From the IMG/VR virus record IMGVR_UViG_3300031857_000212, positions 1-58,030 of that record: a DNA stretch of 58,030 nucleotides; one strand, 5' to 3'. The position numbers and the translations under genes are program-made. The notes under the pieces were generated by a model that ran no database searches, was not told the origin of the DNA, and was given only the letters and a program-made list of their open reading frames with translations. The first letter of the stretch is position 1. The number at the start of each line of letters is the position of its first letter. Positions 11,030-53,734 of the stretch are shown piece after piece. The DNA is from a virus. Taxonomy: Duplodnaviria > Caudoviricetes.

Positions 11030-11683
11030 ATGAAGACATTTATACATCATGATTTACCCAAACTCGAACGTGCCACATCCTCCGATGGAACAAGAGTCTA
11101 CAAGACTCCATCGGGTTCAGCCTATCCAAGCGTCACTACCGTTACAGGATTACACACAGCAAAGGGAATCGCAGAGTGGAGAAAGCGAGTCGGAAACGAA
11201 GAAGCAAACCGAATCTCTGGAAAAGCATCAGCAAGAGGCACAAGGATTCACGGATACTGTGAAGACTACCTACGAGGAAACTTATTCGAAGCCGACATGT
11301 TCGACCTCGAAATGTTCAACTCCATTAAACCCTTACTTGACAAAGTCGACAAAATTCACTGCTTGGAAGATCCACTCTATTCTGACCACTTACAAGTCGC
11401 TGGAACAGTTGATTGTATCGCAGAGTTCCAAGGTAAACTTAGTGTCATAGATTTTAAGACATCAAGTAAACCAAAAGATCGTGATGATATTCATAACTAT
11501 TTTATGCAAACTGCAGCATACGCTGTTGCCTTTGAAGAGAGAACAGGCATTCCTGTTGGTAGACTTGTAATTATTATGGCTGTTGATAATGATGATCCTC
11601 GTTGGTTTATCGAGAAACGTGATAACTGGATTGGTGGGTTTCGCAAACTAAGACTTGACTATAAGAATAAATATAACATCTAA
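11030..11683 (+). CDS. PD-(D/E)XK exonuclease of T4-like phages
   Basis: YPSVTTV, RGTRIH, AGTVDC, IDFKTS, YFMQ..AY. Confidence 0.88.
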   Translation: MKTFIHHDLPKLERATSSDGTRVYKTPSGSAYPSVTTVTGLHTAKGIAEWRKRVGNEEANRISGKASARGTRIHGYCEDYLRGNLFEADMFDLEMFNSIKPLLDKVDKIHCLEDPLYSDHLQVAGTVDCIAEFQGKLSVIDFKTSSKPKDRDDIHNYFMQTAAYAVAFEERTGIPVGRLVIIMAVDNDDPRWFIEKRDNWIGGFRKLRLDYKNKYNI

Positions 11684-11684
11684 T

Positions 11685-11713
11685 TTGCCTTGCAAGAAAT
11701 TGTGGGGTATAAT
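11685..11713 (+). promoter_or_regulatory. tmRNA promoter, TTGCAA class
   Basis: TTGCCT-TGCAA, 17-nt spacer, TATAAT. Confidence 0.8.
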
Positions 11714-11719
11714 TAGTGT

Positions 11720-11976
11720 ATTGTTGTAATTCCTTCAAAGCAAAGGACTTCTGGACGTGGGTTCGACTCCCACCATCTCCACCATAAGAGTTGTTTAGAA
11801 TTTTTATGATGGGGATGCCATGGTTTCGACAGGGGTAGATAGTGGCGACGGCAACACAGTAGGCGATGACTGTAAATCAAGCAAAAAAGTAAATGCAAAC
11901 GACTCTGTCTACGCATTGGCAGCCTAAACGCTGACTAGGGTTTCGATTGGTTTCCTCGTAACAGAATAACCAATCA
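11720..11976 (+). ncRNA. ssrA: circularly permuted (two-piece) tmRNA; tag ANDSVYALAA
   Basis: T-arm GTGGG-TTCGACT-CCCAC (11757-11773) and CATCTCC-A-CCA (11774-11784) precede the 5' strand GGGGATG (11811-11817), giving a 7-bp acceptor stem with G3:U; tag frame 11895-11927; outer ends approximate. Confidence 0.93.
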
Positions 11977-11999
11977 TTAATTTTTTAAATGAGGACATT

Positions 12000-12272
12000 A
12001 TGATTGAACCATTGGGTAAAAAAGTTTACATTGCTGAAGTGAAAGTTGATGAGCGAAAAACTGAATCAGGCATTATTCTTGAGGGTGCGGCTTCTGTTAA
12101 AGTAACTAAGTTCGCTGAAGTATTAGAGATCGGTTACGATGTAAAGAAAGTTCGCAAGGGCGATAAAATTGTTCTTGATTGGGGTAAGTGCATACCAGTT
12201 AAGATCGGTAATGTTGAACGTGCACTGATTGACGAAGAAAACATCTTAGCGATTTATCGTGAAGATCAATAA
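12000..12272 (+). CDS. groES: co-chaperonin GroES (Cpn10)
   Basis: PLG..V, KTESGIIL mobile loop, VRKGDKI, LIDEENILA. Confidence 0.88.
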   Translation: MIEPLGKKVYIAEVKVDERKTESGIILEGAASVKVTKFAEVLEIGYDVKKVRKGDKIVLDWGKCIPVKIGNVERALIDEENILAIYREDQ

Positions 12273-12291
12273 TTAACTTTAAAGGAAACTT

Positions 12292-12486
12292 ATGAAACAT
12301 TTAATCGCATTGGTACTTACAACTTTTGCACTTTCTGCTTTTGCAGCAGACCCAGTTAAAGCACCAGCAACTCCTGCTCCAGAAAACACTAACTGTGTTA
12401 AGAAAGATAAGAATGGTAAGTGTCCTCCACTTCCAGATTCTCCAAAGCCAACTCCAAAGAAAAAAGCTGAAGAGAAAAAGTCCTAA
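12292..12486 (+). CDS. small secreted Pro/Lys-rich protein
   Basis: Signal peptide MKHLIALVLTTFALSAFA; CVKKDKNGKC loop. Confidence 0.75.
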   Translation: MKHLIALVLTTFALSAFAADPVKAPATPAPENTNCVKKDKNGKCPPLPDSPKPTPKKKAEEKKS

Positions 12487-12556
12487 ATAGTATTACTGGC
12501 TTGGTGGAGCCAGTTAAAAAAACCACCATTACACACAACTTTTTACACACAAGGAG
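12483..12556 (+). promoter_or_regulatory. candidate late promoter, pseudoknotted leader and TTACACACAA repeats
   Basis: CTAAATA 12483-12489; stem ACTGGCT/AGCCAGT with loop TGGTGG complementary to CCACCA 12523-12528; TTACACACAA at 12529 and 12543; GGAG RBS. Confidence 0.6.
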
Positions 12557-12563
12557 AAAAACT

Positions 12564-12836
12564 ATGGCAAATCTCACGCCATTTGAAATCCGTCTTGAAC
12601 TTCTCAAGATGGCAAAAGACATGCTTAACGATGACTACTACGGTAAGCGTGAACAAATTAGCAACGACTGGCAACAGAAAGTCGAATCTGCTAAACTCAA
12701 TGGTGGTACAATTCCTGATCATCCAGGATTTCCCACTATCCCATCTGAACAAGAAATTATTGCCAAAGCATCGGTACTTAATGGATTTGTTTCAAACATC
12801 CCACTAGATACAAAGACTAGCAAGAAGTCCACCTGA
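12564..12836 (+). CDS. hypothetical phage protein (90 aa)
   Basis: AAGGAG RBS; MANLTPFEIRLELLKMAKDML; start reassigned to 12564. Confidence 0.8.
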   Translation: MANLTPFEIRLELLKMAKDMLNDDYYGKREQISNDWQQKVESAKLNGGTIPDHPGFPTIPSEQEIIAKASVLNGFVSNIPLDTKTSKKST

Positions 12837-12844
12837 TAGGGATT

Positions 12845-12874
12845 GGATTGCAGGATACACACATCCTGCAATCC
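12845..12874 (+). other. perfect 12-bp hairpin with ACACAC loop
   Basis: GGATTGCAGGAT-ACACAC-ATCCTGCAATCC; weak U-tract, so terminator role uncertain. Confidence 0.75.
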
Positions 12875-12896
12875 TTAACTGTTTTAAGGAGATACA

Positions 12897-13520
12897 ATGC
12901 GAACTAAAAAGATACTGGCAATTGTCAGCTTATTGATTTTATCAATAATCGCAACTACATTATATGCATCAAATAACATTTTTACACTGGATGATAAAAT
13001 TCTTGATGTTGCGTATTCAGAATTAACAAAAGATACTAAGAAACAAATTGATTGCTTGGCAGACAACATCTACCATGAGGCAAGAAGTGAACCAGAGAAA
13101 GGCAAAGTTGCCGTTGCTCTAGTGACCTTAAATAGAGTTGAAGACCCAAGATTTCCAAAAGACATCTGTGGGGTAGTCAAACAAAAGACACAAGGTATGT
13201 GTCAATTTTCTTGGTTCTGTACTGCAGTCAAAAGTAATAAAGGAAGTGAATCGTATCAGTCAGCGAAAGAAGTTGCTGTATACGTTTATGCCAACTACGA
13301 GAAACTACACGATATAACTAAAGGTGCTTTGTATTATCACGCTGATTATGTAAATCCAGGATGGAAGTTACAGAAAACAGTTACTATCGGTCGACATATT
13401 TTTTATAAAGAAGGTGGCAAAAACTATGATGGAAAAACTAAACCTCCAGCTGAAAGACGATTCAGCTTCGAGACATTCTTTCTTTCTGATGATGGAGGAG
13501 ATAAGTTTATCAACTTGTAA
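12897..13520 (+). CDS. cell wall hydrolase, SleB/Hydrolase_2 family
   Basis: CLADNIYHEAR, VA.VTLNRV, ICGVV.Q, CQFSW, GALYYHADYV.P.W, IGRHIFY; N-terminal signal anchor. Confidence 0.9.
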   Translation: MRTKKILAIVSLLILSIIATTLYASNNIFTLDDKILDVAYSELTKDTKKQIDCLADNIYHEARSEPEKGKVAVALVTLNRVEDPRFPKDICGVVKQKTQGMCQFSWFCTAVKSNKGSESYQSAKEVAVYVYANYEKLHDITKGALYYHADYVNPGWKLQKTVTIGRHIFYKEGGKNYDGKTKPPAERRFSFETFFLSDDGGDKFINL

Positions 13521-13986
13521 GAATGCAATTGAGTGGGTGTTTGAAGCAAACTTTGCTGAAGAACGACCAGACATGCTTAATCTTATTATTTGCTCTCCAG
13601 GTGGAGATTTGAATGCTGCTTTTGCTATGGTTGACACAATGCGTGGATCAGCCATTCCCATTAGAACAATTGGCTTGGGTCAAATTGCTTCTGCTGGATT
13701 AATGATTTTTATTGCTGGTGAAAAGGGACAACGTATTCTTACACCGAATACTTCTATTCTCTCTCACCAATATTCATGGGGTGCTTTCGGTAAAGAACAT
13801 GAGTTGTTTGCTCAAATTAAAGAGTTCGACTTAACTACCAAACGCATGATTGCTCATTACAAAAAATGTACTGGGTTATCAGATAAAGAAATTCGTGAAG
13901 TATTGTTGCCACCACAAGATATTTGGTTGAGCGCAAATGAAGCGAAAAAATATGGGATTTGCGACGATGTTAAAGATATTAAGTAA
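13426..13986 (+). CDS. clpP: ClpP-like serine protease subunit
   Basis: ICSPGG, GQIASAG (Ser), LSHQ (His), QDIWLSANEAKKYGICD (Asp). Confidence 0.9.
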   Translation: MMEKLNLQLKDDSASRHSFFLMMEEISLSTCKNAIEWVFEANFAEERPDMLNLIICSPGGDLNAAFAMVDTMRGSAIPIRTIGLGQIASAGLMIFIAGEKGQRILTPNTSILSHQYSWGAFGKEHELFAQIKEFDLTTKRMIAHYKKCTGLSDKEIREVLLPPQDIWLSANEAKKYGICDDVKDIK

Positions 13987-14380: not shown

Positions 14381-14384
14381 CCCG

Positions 14385-14413
14385 ATAACCCTACTCTCTG
14401 TAGGGTTATTTTT
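14385..14413 (+). terminator. rho-independent terminator
   Basis: ATAACCCTAC-TCTCT-GTAGGGTTAT followed by T-run. Confidence 0.75.
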
Positions 14414-15491: not shown

Positions 15492-15758
15492 ATGAATCCC
15501 GCTTACTCCCAAATCGTATCTCAAGCAACTGATCGTGACTTCAACGGCATTGTTCAAACTAGAAATACTCTGTATGTTGAACGCATGCGTCTTGACAAAT
15601 TCTTTACTTTGTTCCTTGACAAATTTGAACGCAATATGGATCCAGATAATACGAATACTCCGATTTGGAATCTCTATAAAACTAAACTGAAGGAATATGA
15701 TGATGTCCAGCGATCAATTAAAGCAGCCGACTACTACCTCACAAAGCAGAATGTTTAA
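15492..15758 (+). CDS. hypothetical protein
   Basis: ORF track. Confidence 0.7.
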   Translation: MNPAYSQIVSQATDRDFNGIVQTRNTLYVERMRLDKFFTLFLDKFERNMDPDNTNTPIWNLYKTKLKEYDDVQRSIKAADYYLTKQNV

Positions 15759-15966
15759 AACTGCCAATGAATTTTCTCTTTACATTGAAGACGTGGTGAA
15801 GAATAAGAAGCAACCTTACATGGATGCAGTTCTTGACTACTGTAAAGAAAACTATCTTGAACCGAAAGATATCGTTAGCTTGATTAACAAGTCACTCAAG
15901 GATAAAATTGGTAATGAATTTCGAGAACAAAACTACCTCCCCAAACAAGCCCAGTTGGACGTTTGA
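15751..15966 (+). CDS. gp33: late transcription coactivator gp33
   Basis: FSLYIE...YMDAVLDYC.EN..E...LINKSLKDKI; position before gp59. Confidence 0.85.
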   Translation: MFKTANEFSLYIEDVVKNKKQPYMDAVLDYCKENYLEPKDIVSLINKSLKDKIGNEFREQNYLPKQAQLDV

Positions 15967-16138
15967 TATTGTTGTAGTAATTTCTATTTTGGCTTTAATT
16001 GCATTTGGATTCTACGTTGCTTCAACACAACCAAAGCATGGAGTTAAAGTTATTGATTGTTCGTTAGCTGAGATCTCTCCAGATTTCACAGCAGAGATGA
16101 AAGAAGCATGTAGGAAAGCACGTAGTGGACGGATTTAA
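15914..16138 (+). CDS. small membrane protein
   Basis: TM helix then DCSLAEISPDF...C; start uncertain. Confidence 0.55.
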   Translation: MNFENKTTSPNKPSWTFDIVVVISILALIAFGFYVASTQPKHGVKVIDCSLAEISPDFTAEMKEACRKARSGRI

Positions 16139-16739
16139 AGCATACAAGTATTACATGGCTATTAAATTGCACTTCACTAGAGATACCTTTGACGTGTTCA
16201 AGAATCGTGGTAGTGTTAAAGGCACACGTGAAGCATTTAATGCTCGTAATGATAGATACATATTTGAGAAGTTGGCAAGAAAGTATCCAGTGGATAAAGA
16301 CTTGATTCAATTCTTTGTGGCTAACTTTGCATACGGTAATGAGAATCCTCAGTATTCCTCGGAAGAGGCATTGAGTAATCTTGGTGAATGGATGAAGCGC
16401 AAGCAGTCTATCACTAAGATCTTCTCTGATGATTGCAGTAAGATTGTTATGTATGCTTACAAGGAAAAGTTAAAAGAACAATCAATCTTTTACTTTACTT
16501 GCAACAATTATCCAAGTATACTTAAGCTATTCCTTGGTGGACAAATAAGTATTGAGTCCGTCAGGATACTTGATGATATGATGAACCTTATTGACAACTG
16601 GAAACAAAATTCAACCATGTTATACTTGTGGGAGAATGAGATACGAAAGATTGAAAAAGTTAAGGGATTTGTGAAGTACGACAAGAGTAAGGTTGAACCA
16701 GTTTTCAATCAGTTTAAAGAAGAGATCCAAGAGTTATAA
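16125..16739 (+). CDS. gp59: helicase loader gp59
   Basis: AYKYYMAIKLHF, F..RNDRYIFEKLARK, FFVANF; between gp33 and gp32. Confidence 0.88.
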   Translation: MDGFKAYKYYMAIKLHFTRDTFDVFKNRGSVKGTREAFNARNDRYIFEKLARKYPVDKDLIQFFVANFAYGNENPQYSSEEALSNLGEWMKRKQSITKIFSDDCSKIVMYAYKEKLKEQSIFYFTCNNYPSILKLFLGGQISIESVRILDDMMNLIDNWKQNSTMLYLWENEIRKIEKVKGFVKYDKSKVEPVFNQFKEEIQEL

Positions 16740-16740
16740 T

Positions 16741-16959
16741 ATGGGTAAGACATACCATAAAAATTCGAAGAAGTTCGAAGAAGAATCTAGTGGGCGATCT
16801 GGGAAACCAGCTAGACATGCCAGCGGTAAAAAAACTGGTGGTATGAGAACGCTAAATAGTTATGTTGATGAAGATATTGATTTTGATGATGACATCTTTG
16901 ATGATGATATTGAAATGACCGATGACATTCAGATTCAACACAATACTAATACAAAGTAA
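16741..16959 (+). CDS. hypothetical protein with basic N-terminus and acidic C-terminus
   Basis: Start reassigned to MGKTYHKN at 16741. Confidence 0.65.
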   Translation: MGKTYHKNSKKFEEESSGRSGKPARHASGKKTGGMRTLNSYVDEDIDFDDDIFDDDIEMTDDIQIQHNTNTK

Positions 16960-16985
16960 TATTTTTAATACAAAGGAAACATACG

Positions 16986-17909
16986 ATGGATATTCAAAAA
17001 CTCCGCTCAATGCGCAACTCTGATTTTGGTGCAATTGCCAATGCTTTCGAGAAAGTTGCCAACCCCCAATCCGAAACCAAGTCCTACGTTGACGACCGAT
17101 TCTGGCGTCTAGAAGGCGATAAAGCAGGTAACGGCACAGCAACACTAAGATTCCTACCACGTGTAGAAGGTGATGAACTCCCATGGGTTCGTATCTTTTC
17201 TCATGGCTTCCAAGGACCAACTGGTAAGTGGTATATCGAGAACTCACTGACTACTCTTGGTGAGAATGATCCTGTTGGTGAATTGAACACTCAACTTTGG
17301 AACTCTGGTTCTGAAGCCAACAAAGAGATTGCTCGTAAACAAAAGCGTAAGTTATCTTTCACTGCCAATGTCTTGGTTGTGTCTGATCCAAAACACCCAG
17401 AGAACGAAGGTAAGGTATTCTTGTTTAAATTTGGCAAGAAAATCTTTGACAAGATCATGGACAAAGCACGTCCAACTTTCGAAGATGAAAAGCCAGTGAA
17501 TGTATTTGACTTATGGGAAGGTGCCAATTTCAAACTGCGTATGCGTAAGAAAGATGGTTATGCCAACTATGATGAGTCTGTGTTTGCTGATCCTTCTCCT
17601 GTCTCAGAAGATGAAAACAAACTGTTGGCAATTGTAAACTCTCAAACTAAGTTATCTGAGTTTACTGATCGTAAGAACTTTAAGTCTTATGATGAACTCA
17701 AGAAGAAACTGAATGAGGTTTTGTCTGGTGATTCTTTTGCTAGCAAATCTGCTGCAGAGATTGCTTCTGATGAAGATCGTCCAGTTCGTGCTGCACCAAC
17801 ACCAGCTAGTTCTATGCCAGCTTCAACTCCAAAGGCAAGCAAACCTGCTCCGATGGATGACGACGAAGATGTGATGTCTTACTTTGAGAAGATCGCACAA
17901 GAAGATTAA
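16986..17909 (+). CDS. gp32: single-stranded DNA-binding protein gp32
   Basis: DDRFW..DKAGNG.A..RFLP, HGFQGPTGKWYIENSLTT, GANFKL, acidic tail. Confidence 0.97.
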   Translation: MDIQKLRSMRNSDFGAIANAFEKVANPQSETKSYVDDRFWRLEGDKAGNGTATLRFLPRVEGDELPWVRIFSHGFQGPTGKWYIENSLTTLGENDPVGELNTQLWNSGSEANKEIARKQKRKLSFTANVLVVSDPKHPENEGKVFLFKFGKKIFDKIMDKARPTFEDEKPVNVFDLWEGANFKLRMRKKDGYANYDESVFADPSPVSEDENKLLAIVNSQTKLSEFTDRKNFKSYDELKKKLNEVLSGDSFASKSAAEIASDEDRPVRAAPTPASSMPASTPKASKPAPMDDDEDVMSYFEKIAQED

Positions 17910-53661: not shown

Positions 53662-53706
53662 CTAAATAATTGATGGGGTGAAATTCCCCCTCCCAGTATA
53701 TACTGG
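53662..53706 (+). promoter_or_regulatory. candidate late promoter, hairpin and 14-bp palindrome
   Basis: CTAAATA 53662-53668; GGGG-TGAAATT-CCCC; CCAGTATATACTGG 53693-53706. Confidence 0.55.
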
Positions 53707-53734
53707 CGTCATTTTCTAGATAGAATAGGTTATA

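Follow-up and report, generated by a model that had tools for sequence, protein, structure and literature searches.

What does a compact RNA structure, followed by a run of CA repeats, do for the single small gene that it precedes in a T4-like phage? The question is raised by a gene for a protein of 90 amino acids (aa) in the IMG/VR virus record IMGVR_UViG_3300031857_000212 (Duplodnaviria; Caudoviricetes). Positions 1 to 58,030 of this record were analysed, and this whole stretch of 58,030 nucleotides (nt) is called the window below. An earlier note, made from the letters of the DNA, had described an H-type pseudoknot upstream of the gene, two CA-repeat motifs ahead of its ribosome-binding site (RBS) and a third in the loop of a hairpin after its stop codon. 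From these it had proposed that the 90-aa product or another factor binds ACACAC RNA and represses translation. The sequence features that it named lie where it had placed them, except that the ATG is at 12564 and not at 12565. The pseudoknot proved to be genuine: as judged by comparison with metagenomic relatives, it is a real and evolutionarily conserved structure, and both of its stems covary.

A covarying pseudoknot ahead of one small gene

A strict scan for H-type folds was applied to both strands of the whole window. It demanded 5 bp or more in each stem, no more than 1 nt in loop 1, an A-rich loop 3 of 5-9 nt, and five or more G-C pairs, and the leader pseudoknot (Table 1) was its sole match. 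Ten mononucleotide shuffles of one strand gave one match in total (1, 0, 0, 0, 0, 0, 0, 0, 0, 0). For the comparative analysis, leaders were taken from the best 80 of 232 confirmed IMG/VR loci, which yielded 52 distinct leaders and one incomplete leader; in a later IMG/VR profile scan, 541 of 600 loci were confirmed, and the best 80 of these were used. Alignment A1 consisted of the window and 51 of the 52 distinct leaders, L024 being omitted because it contains N. In A1, 93.8% of the stem 2 cells were paired, and both sides varied in four of the six pairs. One pair, for example, occurred as AU 26 times, as GC 18 times and as UA twice, and another as UA (27), AU (12), CG (5), and GC (3). The covariation score of stem 2 was matched by none of 500 shuffles and fell from 0.36 to 0.04-0.13 when the partner was shifted by one to three columns. 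A model-based alignment (A4) showed the same stem covariation as A1.

Since MAFFT loses the register of stem 1, this stem was scored with a structure-aware scanner, which found the pseudoknot in 50 of the 53 distinct leaders. Scores of at least 10 were reached by 43 of the 53, versus 11 of 1060 shuffled leaders. The scanner failed on L050, which has no fold, on L051, which has one mismatch, and on L053, where loop 1 is 2 nt long. The 35 distinct cores that were curated contained 20 different stem-1 and 27 different stem-2 duplexes, every one of them paired; the stem-1 variants included ACTGGCT/AGCCAGT, AGGGT/ACCCT, ACTAGC/GCTAGT, CGTGGTT/AACCACG, and CATGGT/ACCATG. Loop 3 was ATAAAA in 13 of the 35 cores and TAAAAAAA in the clade of the window, where stem 1 is longer, as expected for a loop that crosses the stem-1 groove. 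Loops 1 and 2 measured 0-2 nt each across the relatives, and in the window the helices are fully stacked. The UU at the stem boundary was nearly invariant in A1 and most likely serves as loop 1; because the fold drawn for the window has a loop 1 of 0 nt, one or two of the junction U's would have to open in order to cross stem 2. The pseudoknot of T2 gene 32 reportedly has a one-nucleotide loop 1 across a 7-bp stem.

A covariance model built from the pseudoknot core (R1) scored 37.7 bits at the leader and 13.9 bits at the second-best match in the window. Four of five related records contained a strong match, one each in three complete relatives (160-174 kb, with terminal repeats) and one in a fragment, always in the leader of the 90-aa gene; the fifth, G004, a relative whose leader has no pseudoknot, gave none. 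Weak R1 matches in the complete relatives (E 0.17-0.8) were read as noise. Across 55 loci (308 kb), the model returned a single additional match, a second copy in locus L044. By these searches, the pseudoknot occurs once per genome and is specific to the leader of the 90-aa gene, save for the L044 copy. The latter (L044:2638-2670), which R1 scored at 29.4 bits, is found some 300 nt upstream of the regular copy. It precedes the counterpart of the 64-aa (lipoprotein-like) open reading frame (ORF) of the window and has no CA tract; therefore, the fold can apparently head another mRNA. No Rfam 15 family matched the pseudoknot, either at the gathering score over the whole window or at E ≤10 in the segments 12400-12950 and 11900-12580. 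A minimum free energy fold drew CCACCA as paired with a UGGUGG in the coding sequence; this pairing was set aside, as stem 2 covaries with its local partner instead.

Three points are absent from the earlier note, namely that CTAAATA is a T4-type late promoter motif, that ACA tracts are known enhancers, and that the gene is linked to a transfer-messenger RNA (tmRNA). In the late promoters of Aeromonas phage Aeh1, CTAAATA is described as beginning at -12, and the T4 motif TATAAATA as covering -13 to -6 (PMC1524935; a second source for the Aeh1/T4-type motif is PMC2988020). With CTAAATA at -12 as in Aeh1, the predicted +1 therefore falls on the first base of stem 1. Of 104 distinct leaders, 88 contained [ACT]TAAATA in the upstream 100 nt, and stem 1 began 4-11 nt after TAAATA in the relatives. 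The exceptions were L067, L068, and L074, in which stem 1 follows the motif by 18-25 nt and an extra small hairpin stands 5' of the pseudoknot. Further (C/T/A)TAAATA sites lie 13-73 nt ahead of the ATGs of structural genes in the window. Of the marks of T4-type late transcription, the motif, its recurrence before structural genes, and a gp33 homologue were observed. The genome of this phage is represented by the 58-kb contig alone, with gp55, gp45, and the capsid genes outside it, and the transcript start is a predicted one. In one metatranscriptome run, a 100%-identical contig begins at 12492 and extends into the gene; contigs prove no transcript start, the parts that they leave uncovered are uninformative, and expression levels are not derivable from them. 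The CTAAATA site at 53662-53734 has an unusually long leader of 73 nt, which contains two hairpins, GGGG...CCCC and CCAGTATATACTGG, and has a tail-fibre-like gene downstream.

Table 1. Features of the 90-aa gene, its leader and its surroundings (window coordinates)
Feature	Position	Strand	Basis or remark
PD-(D/E)XK exonuclease	11030-11683	+	Pfam/PHROG matching
Permuted two-piece tmRNA, tag ANDSVYALAA	11671-11997	+	Rfam RF01850 160.1 bits, RF04321 155 bits; ARAGORN
Terminal pseudoknot of the tmRNA	~11936-11975	+	
GroES-like gene	12000-12272	+	
64-aa ORF	12292-12486	+	signal-peptide-like hydrophobic N-terminus (read from translation), Pro/Lys-rich tail
T4-type late promoter motif CTAAATA (-12 to -6)	12483-12489	+	predicted +1 at 12495
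H-type pseudoknot	12495-12528	+	covariation, structure scan, covariance model
Stem 1, ACTGGCT / AGCCAGT	12495-12501 / 12508-12514	+	
Stem 2, loop TGGTGG exactly complementary to CCACCA	12502-12507 / 12523-12528	+	
Loop 3, A-rich (T+A7)	12515-12522	+	
ACA-rich tract with two TTACACACAA copies	12529-12552	+	copies at 12529-12538 and 12543-12552
Shine-Dalgarno AAGGAG, 7 nt ahead of ATG	12551-12556	+	sequence; kept in alignment A1
90-aa ORF	12564-12836	+	start ATG at 12564, stop TGA 12834-12836
3' stem-loop, perfect 12-bp arms, loop ACACAC	12845-12874	+	arms 12845-12856 / 12863-12874, loop 12857-12862
Hydrolase_2 cell-wall hydrolase	12897-13520	+	
ClpP homologue	~13414-13986	+	
gp33 homologue (late co-activator)	15697-15966		phrog_254, E 1.4e-17
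gp32 homologue (single-strand-binding protein)	16986-17909		phrog_224, E 2.1e-106

CA-rich sequences, the 3' hairpin and alternative leaders

The ACA-rich tract between the pseudoknot and the Shine-Dalgarno sequence (SD) belongs to a 39-nt G-free run (12514-12552) that ends at the SD. The second TTACACACAA copy overlaps AAGGAG, and of the two ACACACA copies (12531-12537 and 12545-12551) the second ends inside it. Being G-free and rich in ACA, the tract cannot fold, and neither spurious start codons nor sites resembling an SD can arise in it. As a plain number, TACACACA was ordinary in the window (5 vs. 3.96 expected; 34 of 100 shuffles reach 5), and ACACAC was depleted (14 vs. 38.8 expected). 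The only non-coding ACACAC/CACACA hexamers on the + strand of the 58 kb are the three sites around the 90-aa gene. All 96 distinct leaders of the close family contained ACACA or CACAC in the 45 nt before the ATG, with a G-free run before the SD of 34 nt in the median and an A+C fraction of 0.82; the same pentamers were present in only 10 of the 96 coding sequences (approximately 270 nt each). The tract was also kept in IMG/VR homologues of 25-49% protein identity, sometimes between the SD and the ATG, and the leader of Phage C48C1 (Kyanoviridae, 31% identity) carries TTACACACAACACACACAAGGAG. In the complete relatives ACACACA is rare (11, 8, and 3 sites), and one or two of the sites lie in the leader of the 90-aa gene. 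A search for a CA-tract regulon found no other gene of the window with such a tract in its initiation region; where other late genes are concerned, the leaders are short and carry none. By these counts, the CA motif is a conserved, gene-specific element. Some selection on it at the sequence level is likely, because all 11 leaders of a sister clade present CACACA in a 5' hairpin loop.

The earlier note had grouped the two 5' motifs with the one in the 3' loop. Conservation extends to the 5' copies and not to the 3' loop motif, as the exact loop ACACAC was found only in the window (1 of 96) and CAC in 29 of 96 loops. The hairpin itself recurs: an uninterrupted stem of at least 8 bp was present in 78 of 97 distinct post-stop stretches, with 71 different 5' arms, and so many different paired arms indicate that the structure of the 3' hairpin is selected. 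In addition, ACACA or CACAC occurred in 33 of 85 distinct 55-nt post-stop stretches versus 4.4 in shuffles, a comparison uncorrected for relatedness; in about two thirds of these, the opposite arm held GTGTG (23 of 85). The hairpin is not a canonical intrinsic terminator: it has the stem and a tail, TTAACTGT, with 4 T in 8 nt, a terminator scan made no call, and just 15 of 96 relatives had at least 5 T in the 8 nt after it. A GGGAT(T/C)GG box (12837-12846 in the window) separates the hairpin from the double stop TGATAG in 61 of 97 distinct sequences, and TTAAC follows the hairpin in 47 of 97, often within TTAACTAATTAAGGAG. Pairing of the GGGAT box with the 3' strand of stem 1 was considered and rejected, since the stem 1 of the window differs, the box is unchanged, and no covariation was found.

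The leader takes several forms. Among 104 distinct leaders, 71 carried the pseudoknot and five a pseudoknot with one mismatch or beyond the scanner range. In 11 leaders the promoter is followed by a plain hairpin with covarying stems, its loop always containing CACACA. A further nine have no promoter, and their tract stands directly after the terminal pseudoknot of a permuted tmRNA; the remaining eight have another form or no structure. The near-pseudoknot and tmRNA assignments, made within what the scanner classed as other, were partly by eye. The hairpin leaders belong to the sister clade (L117, L120, L130, L138, L139, L140, L147, L150, L155, L157, and L158), in which the hairpin with the CACACA loop is followed by a second CA tract and then by the SD. 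The small gene comes directly after the tmRNA, with no late promoter between them, in L151, L146, L154, L133, L153, L156, L173/L174, and L178-L182. In L151, L173, L178, and L182 the tmRNA was confirmed with Rfam and ends about 30 nt before the ATG. In such tmRNA-adjacent relatives the small gene may be co-transcribed with the tmRNA precursor. The association is wider than these cases: ARAGORN located a same-strand tmRNA at most 1500 nt upstream in 96 of 133 loci with at least 900 nt of upstream sequence.

Possible roles of the leader

For the protein behind this leader, 1769 of 1775 candidates qualified as homologues at E ≤0.001, and 296 clusters were obtained at 50% identity. Its AlphaFold2 model (mean pLDDT 89.3) predicts two helices, a long one at 6-46 and another at 62-76, with a proline-rich loop between them, and an LNxFVS motif is conserved close to the C-terminus. 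No Pfam or PHROG family was found for it, and the PDB was unmatched both by sequence and by a Foldseek fold search at E ≤0.001. The BFVD fold search returned uncharacterised phage proteins only, the ESM Atlas gave no match, and the longer homologues contained no informative additional domain. A homodimer prediction scored 0.02, which is evidence neither way. Among cultured phages, tblastn with the window protein found Phage C48C1 alone and with two distant homologues gave no match; one viral scan with homologue P0182 returned no relative. Following a paper that places the late-transcription co-activator directly 3' of a phage tmRNA (PMC9004378), gp33 was considered as a candidate and rejected, as the gp33 homologue is a separate ORF (Table 1). 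By a hand count from the translation, the conserved core (residues 1-78) holds 8 basic versus 11 acidic residues. With no known fold or family and a net acidic core, the RNA-binding role that the earlier note had proposed for the product is unsupported.

On balance we lean, tentatively, towards reading the region as a cis-acting high-expression cassette of one late gene, which we hold to be quite possible. Late transcription from CTAAATA would begin at about 12495, and the mRNA would open with the compact pseudoknot, for which covariation shows two G-C-rich stems, a loop 1 of one or two U's, and an A-rich loop 3. The fold would shield the 5' end from 5'-end-dependent decay and may additionally dock the 30S subunit or ribosomal protein S1. 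The following 24-40 nt, conserved as G-free, ACA-rich, and unfoldable sequence, would act as a C/A-rich (ACA-motif) translational enhancer, by analogy with Salmonella and E. coli, and feed ribosomes to a strong, optimally spaced SD. The stable post-stop hairpin would protect or define the 3' end. The outcome would be high, gene-specific late expression of a small helical protein genetically linked to the phage tmRNA, for which a dedicated trans-acting repressor would be unnecessary. According to PMC3879156, every base of an ACA triplet matters in Salmonella yifK, and dppA loses more than 100-fold in expression once its four ACAs are exchanged. The same source describes pairing of GcvB with C/A-rich enhancer tracts upstream of the SD, activity of CA repeats downstream of the start codon, initiation without an SD on ACAA repeats, and SELEX ligands of S1 that are pseudoknots with ACA in their loops; for the CA, ACAA, and S1 points it cites Sharma 2007, Martin-Farmer and Janssen 1999, Tzareva 1994, and Ringquist 1995. 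As 11 leaders carry a plain hairpin and nine a tmRNA pseudoknot in the same place, the three structures are interchangeable, which fits a generic structural role.

Several observations weigh against a purely cis-acting cassette. The CA alternation is retained, though an AT-rich genome should drift to A/U; all 11 of the alternative 5' hairpins retain CACACA in their loop; CACAC is over-represented after the stop codon (33 of 85 vs. 4.4); and the CA motif is confined to one gene. Together, these four points hint at a sequence-specific reader. In addition, a simple cap would not require a pseudoknot in which the UU junction and the A-rich loop 3 are both conserved, and the enhancer data are enterobacterial (PMC3879156) and may not hold in the host of this phage. 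The predicted start rests on the motif and on the single contig end at 12492, a weak hint. Because a metatranscriptome contig of a relative spans the promoter, read-through transcripts with an internal pseudoknot may also occur.

In a rival reading, the leader would be a translational operator, in which a protein on the pseudoknot and/or CACACA occludes the RBS. The binder would be the 90-aa product (autogenous control) or another phage or host factor, and the 3' CACAC may supply an additional site. The layout agrees with this, since in gene 32, too, the leader opens with a pseudoknot and continues as unstructured RNA up to the RBS (PMC3014915). The distribution of the CA sequences agrees as well: all non-coding + strand CA hexamers of the window surround this gene, CACAC is enriched 3' of it, and CACACA occupies the loop of a covarying hairpin throughout the sister clade. 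The motif also stays with the gene at 25-49% protein identity and beside alpha-type and beta-type tmRNA neighbours alike, as expected of a binder encoded in cis. However, the searches of Pfam, PHROG, PDB, BFVD, and ESM Atlas revealed no known RNA-binding fold or family in the acidic 90-aa protein, and no candidate binder was identified. Moreover, the gene persists where the pseudoknot is lost or replaced (L050, L137, and the hairpin variants), and ACA tracts are reported to suffice as enhancers without a repressor (PMC3879156). An operator of this general kind therefore seems rather doubtful to us. The narrower proposal, that the pseudoknot and the CACACA sites (in the tract, in the alternative hairpin loop, and in or next to the 3' hairpin) are an operator read by the gene's own 90-aa product, is unlikely. 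For the control of the downstream hydrolase and ClpP genes, which the earlier note had added to this circuit, there was no indication. The frequent tmRNA neighbour suggests a different origin, in which the leader element is a relic or working copy of the tmRNA terminal pseudoknot, carried over from an ancestral gene directly 3' of, and co-transcribed with, the phage tmRNA, and serving as a processing, folding, or S1-binding signal. Besides the 96 of 133 loci, this is favoured by L151, L173, L178, and L182, where the last tmRNA pseudoknot abuts the CA tract, and by the tmRNA pseudoknot of the window, which in our own reading shows the same order of parts as the leader fold (GGG stem, U-rich loop 1, second stem, A-rich loop 3). 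Homology of the two folds is nevertheless unsupported, as their likeness in a global alignment was at chance level (196 to 1271 of 2000 shuffles scored as well) and R1 gave no match on the tmRNA pseudoknot (11936-11980). Several loci (L161, L122) also carry the two structures one after the other, separated by a late promoter, and we regard a tmRNA relic as quite improbable.

The possibility of a riboswitch or other sensor (of a ligand, temperature, or an ion) that tunes translation of the small gene appears extremely unlikely; a ligand sensor had also been raised in the earlier note. The fold is comparable in size and topology to small pseudoknot aptamers with an A-rich 3' loop, such as preQ1-I and SAM-II. 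For the related T4-like methylophage Melnitz, which has a two-piece tmRNA, a glutamine riboswitch is reported as a prediction within the 3' domain of ssrA (PMC9004378). Against this, no covariance-model match was obtained with the known pseudoknot riboswitches (preQ1, SAM-II/V, glutamine, fluoride, and the rest of Rfam 15), and the searches of 12400-12950 and 11900-12580 at E ≤10, glutamine riboswitch models included, found no family. Neither a conserved unpaired pocket nor an SD within the 3' stem was seen in the window and its relatives. The junction nucleotides vary, loops 1 and 2 are short and the helices of the window fully stacked, the sequence of stem 2 is freely variable, and a plain hairpin can replace the fold. 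The SD lies unsequestered 23-30 nt past the fold, in a tract unable to pair with it, and no expression platform is visible; in the window, the 3' strand of stem 2 ends 22 nt ahead of the SD. Alternatively, the ACA tract could be the pairing target of a GU-rich, GcvB-like small RNA of the host or the phage that silences the enhancer, which would be compatible with a high-expression cassette. GcvB is described as acting in this way on C/A-rich enhancers upstream of the SD (PMC3879156), but no GU-rich partner was found, the sole TGTGTGTA in the window lying inside an ORF, and we consider this very unlikely.

Gene neighbourhood and relation to known systems

On the basis of PHROG matches (gp32, gp59, gp33, baseplate and tail proteins, a DNA end protector, and a head closure protein), the freshwater source phage is identified as a T4-like myovirus. 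The GC content of the window is approximately 37%, and the order gp33, gp59, gp32 (15697-17909) matches the T4 order. A sigma-70-like promoter, TTGCCT-17-TATAAT, stands at the start of the tmRNA (11685-11713). The tmRNA of the window is of the betaproteobacterial type; it fits poorly to the terminator hairpin that closes the Rfam model, so read-through from the tmRNA into the GroES-like gene is likely. The stop codon of the 64-aa ORF falls within the CTAAATA motif of the 90-aa gene. Further downstream, the hydrolase ORF overlaps the longest ClpP ORF (GTG start at 13414) by 107 nt (13414-13520), and for this reason the real start of ClpP is probably downstream of that GTG. At 14384-14410, a strong terminator-like hairpin of 11 pairs gave a call on each strand; on the + strand a T run comes after it. 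The tmRNA, the GroES-like co-chaperonin, the 90-aa gene, and the ClpP homologue are clustered at 11671-13986, in what looks like a proteostasis module. Because the gene lies 3' of a same-strand tmRNA in so many of the relatives (96 of 133), its product might work with trans-translation or tag-directed proteolysis.

Among described systems, the closest in layout is the leader of gene 32, and the comparison with T4 gene 32 in the earlier note was apt in this respect. In that leader, gp32 binding is nucleated at a 5' pseudoknot and extends from there along unstructured RNA as far as the RBS (PMC3014915). As in gene 32 of T4, T2, and RB69, the element studied here belongs to a T4-type phage, has its H-type pseudoknot at the 5' end of the leader and an unstructured tract that reaches the RBS, and lies in an mRNA bracketed by structure, as described for that unusually stable message (PMC3014915). 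However, the gene 32 tract is A+U-rich with UUAA(A) repeats, whereas the tract here is CA-rich (A+C 0.82) and contains no UUAAA. The gene 32 product is a single-strand-binding protein, and the product here is small and helical with no OB fold. The gp32 homologue of the window is a separate gene with a short leader, and the strict H-type scan shows no pseudoknot before it; the promoter of the 90-aa gene is late-type, unlike that of gene 32. Because three defining features of the gene 32-type family were not found in it, the leader is not, on present comparisons, a member of that family.

The tract resembles the enterobacterial ACA-motif enhancers (gltI, dppA, oppA, and yifK; GcvB targets) in its ACA triplets, its low G content, and its position just upstream of the SD, and the tolerance of these enhancers to shifts in position (PMC3879156) fits the variable length of the tract here. 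Unlike them, it belongs to a phage late gene and is coupled to a 5' pseudoknot, and its enhancer activity is putative. The terminal pseudoknot of two-piece tmRNA is similar in the order of its parts and, in the tmRNA-adjacent relatives, stands in the same place before the CA tract; the leader fold is shorter, with a stem 2 of 5-6 vs. 8 bp and a loop 3 of 6-8 vs. about 11 nt. Stabilising stem-loops at the 5' terminus, of the ompA type, are known on bacterial and phage mRNAs. Like these, the structure lies within a few nt of the predicted 5' end and is replaceable by a plain hairpin; in contrast to them, it is most often a pseudoknot, whose junction and loop 3 are conserved. A literature search (pseudoknot, late promoter, T4-like) found no description of the element, although papers beyond the searched literature may differ. 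As far as its parts can be compared with described ones, the element is a new phage RNA motif assembled from known kinds of parts.

The window thus adds a well-supported structured RNA motif outside Rfam 15, linked to a single conserved gene without an assigned function and shared by hundreds of contigs from T4-like phages that abound in fresh water. The motif joins two separately known elements, a gene 32-like 5' pseudoknot and an ACA-motif enhancer similar to the targets of GcvB silencing. It provides a natural system for studying ribosome recruitment by ACA enhancers and a possible recognition of pseudoknot-plus-ACA ligands by S1 in vivo, and for asking whether pseudoknot translational control in phages exceeds the single textbook case; in the review PMC3014915, the gene 32 pseudoknot is called possibly the only viral one used in translational autoregulation. 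The linkage to a two-piece tmRNA, GroES, and ClpP points to an unstudied proteostasis module and supplies a context for the 90-aa protein. If the 90-aa product did read such an operator, T4-type phages would have, besides gene 32, a second autogenous translational circuit nucleated by a pseudoknot, and a protein that travels with tmRNA and ClpP might tie trans-translation or proteolysis to its own dosage.

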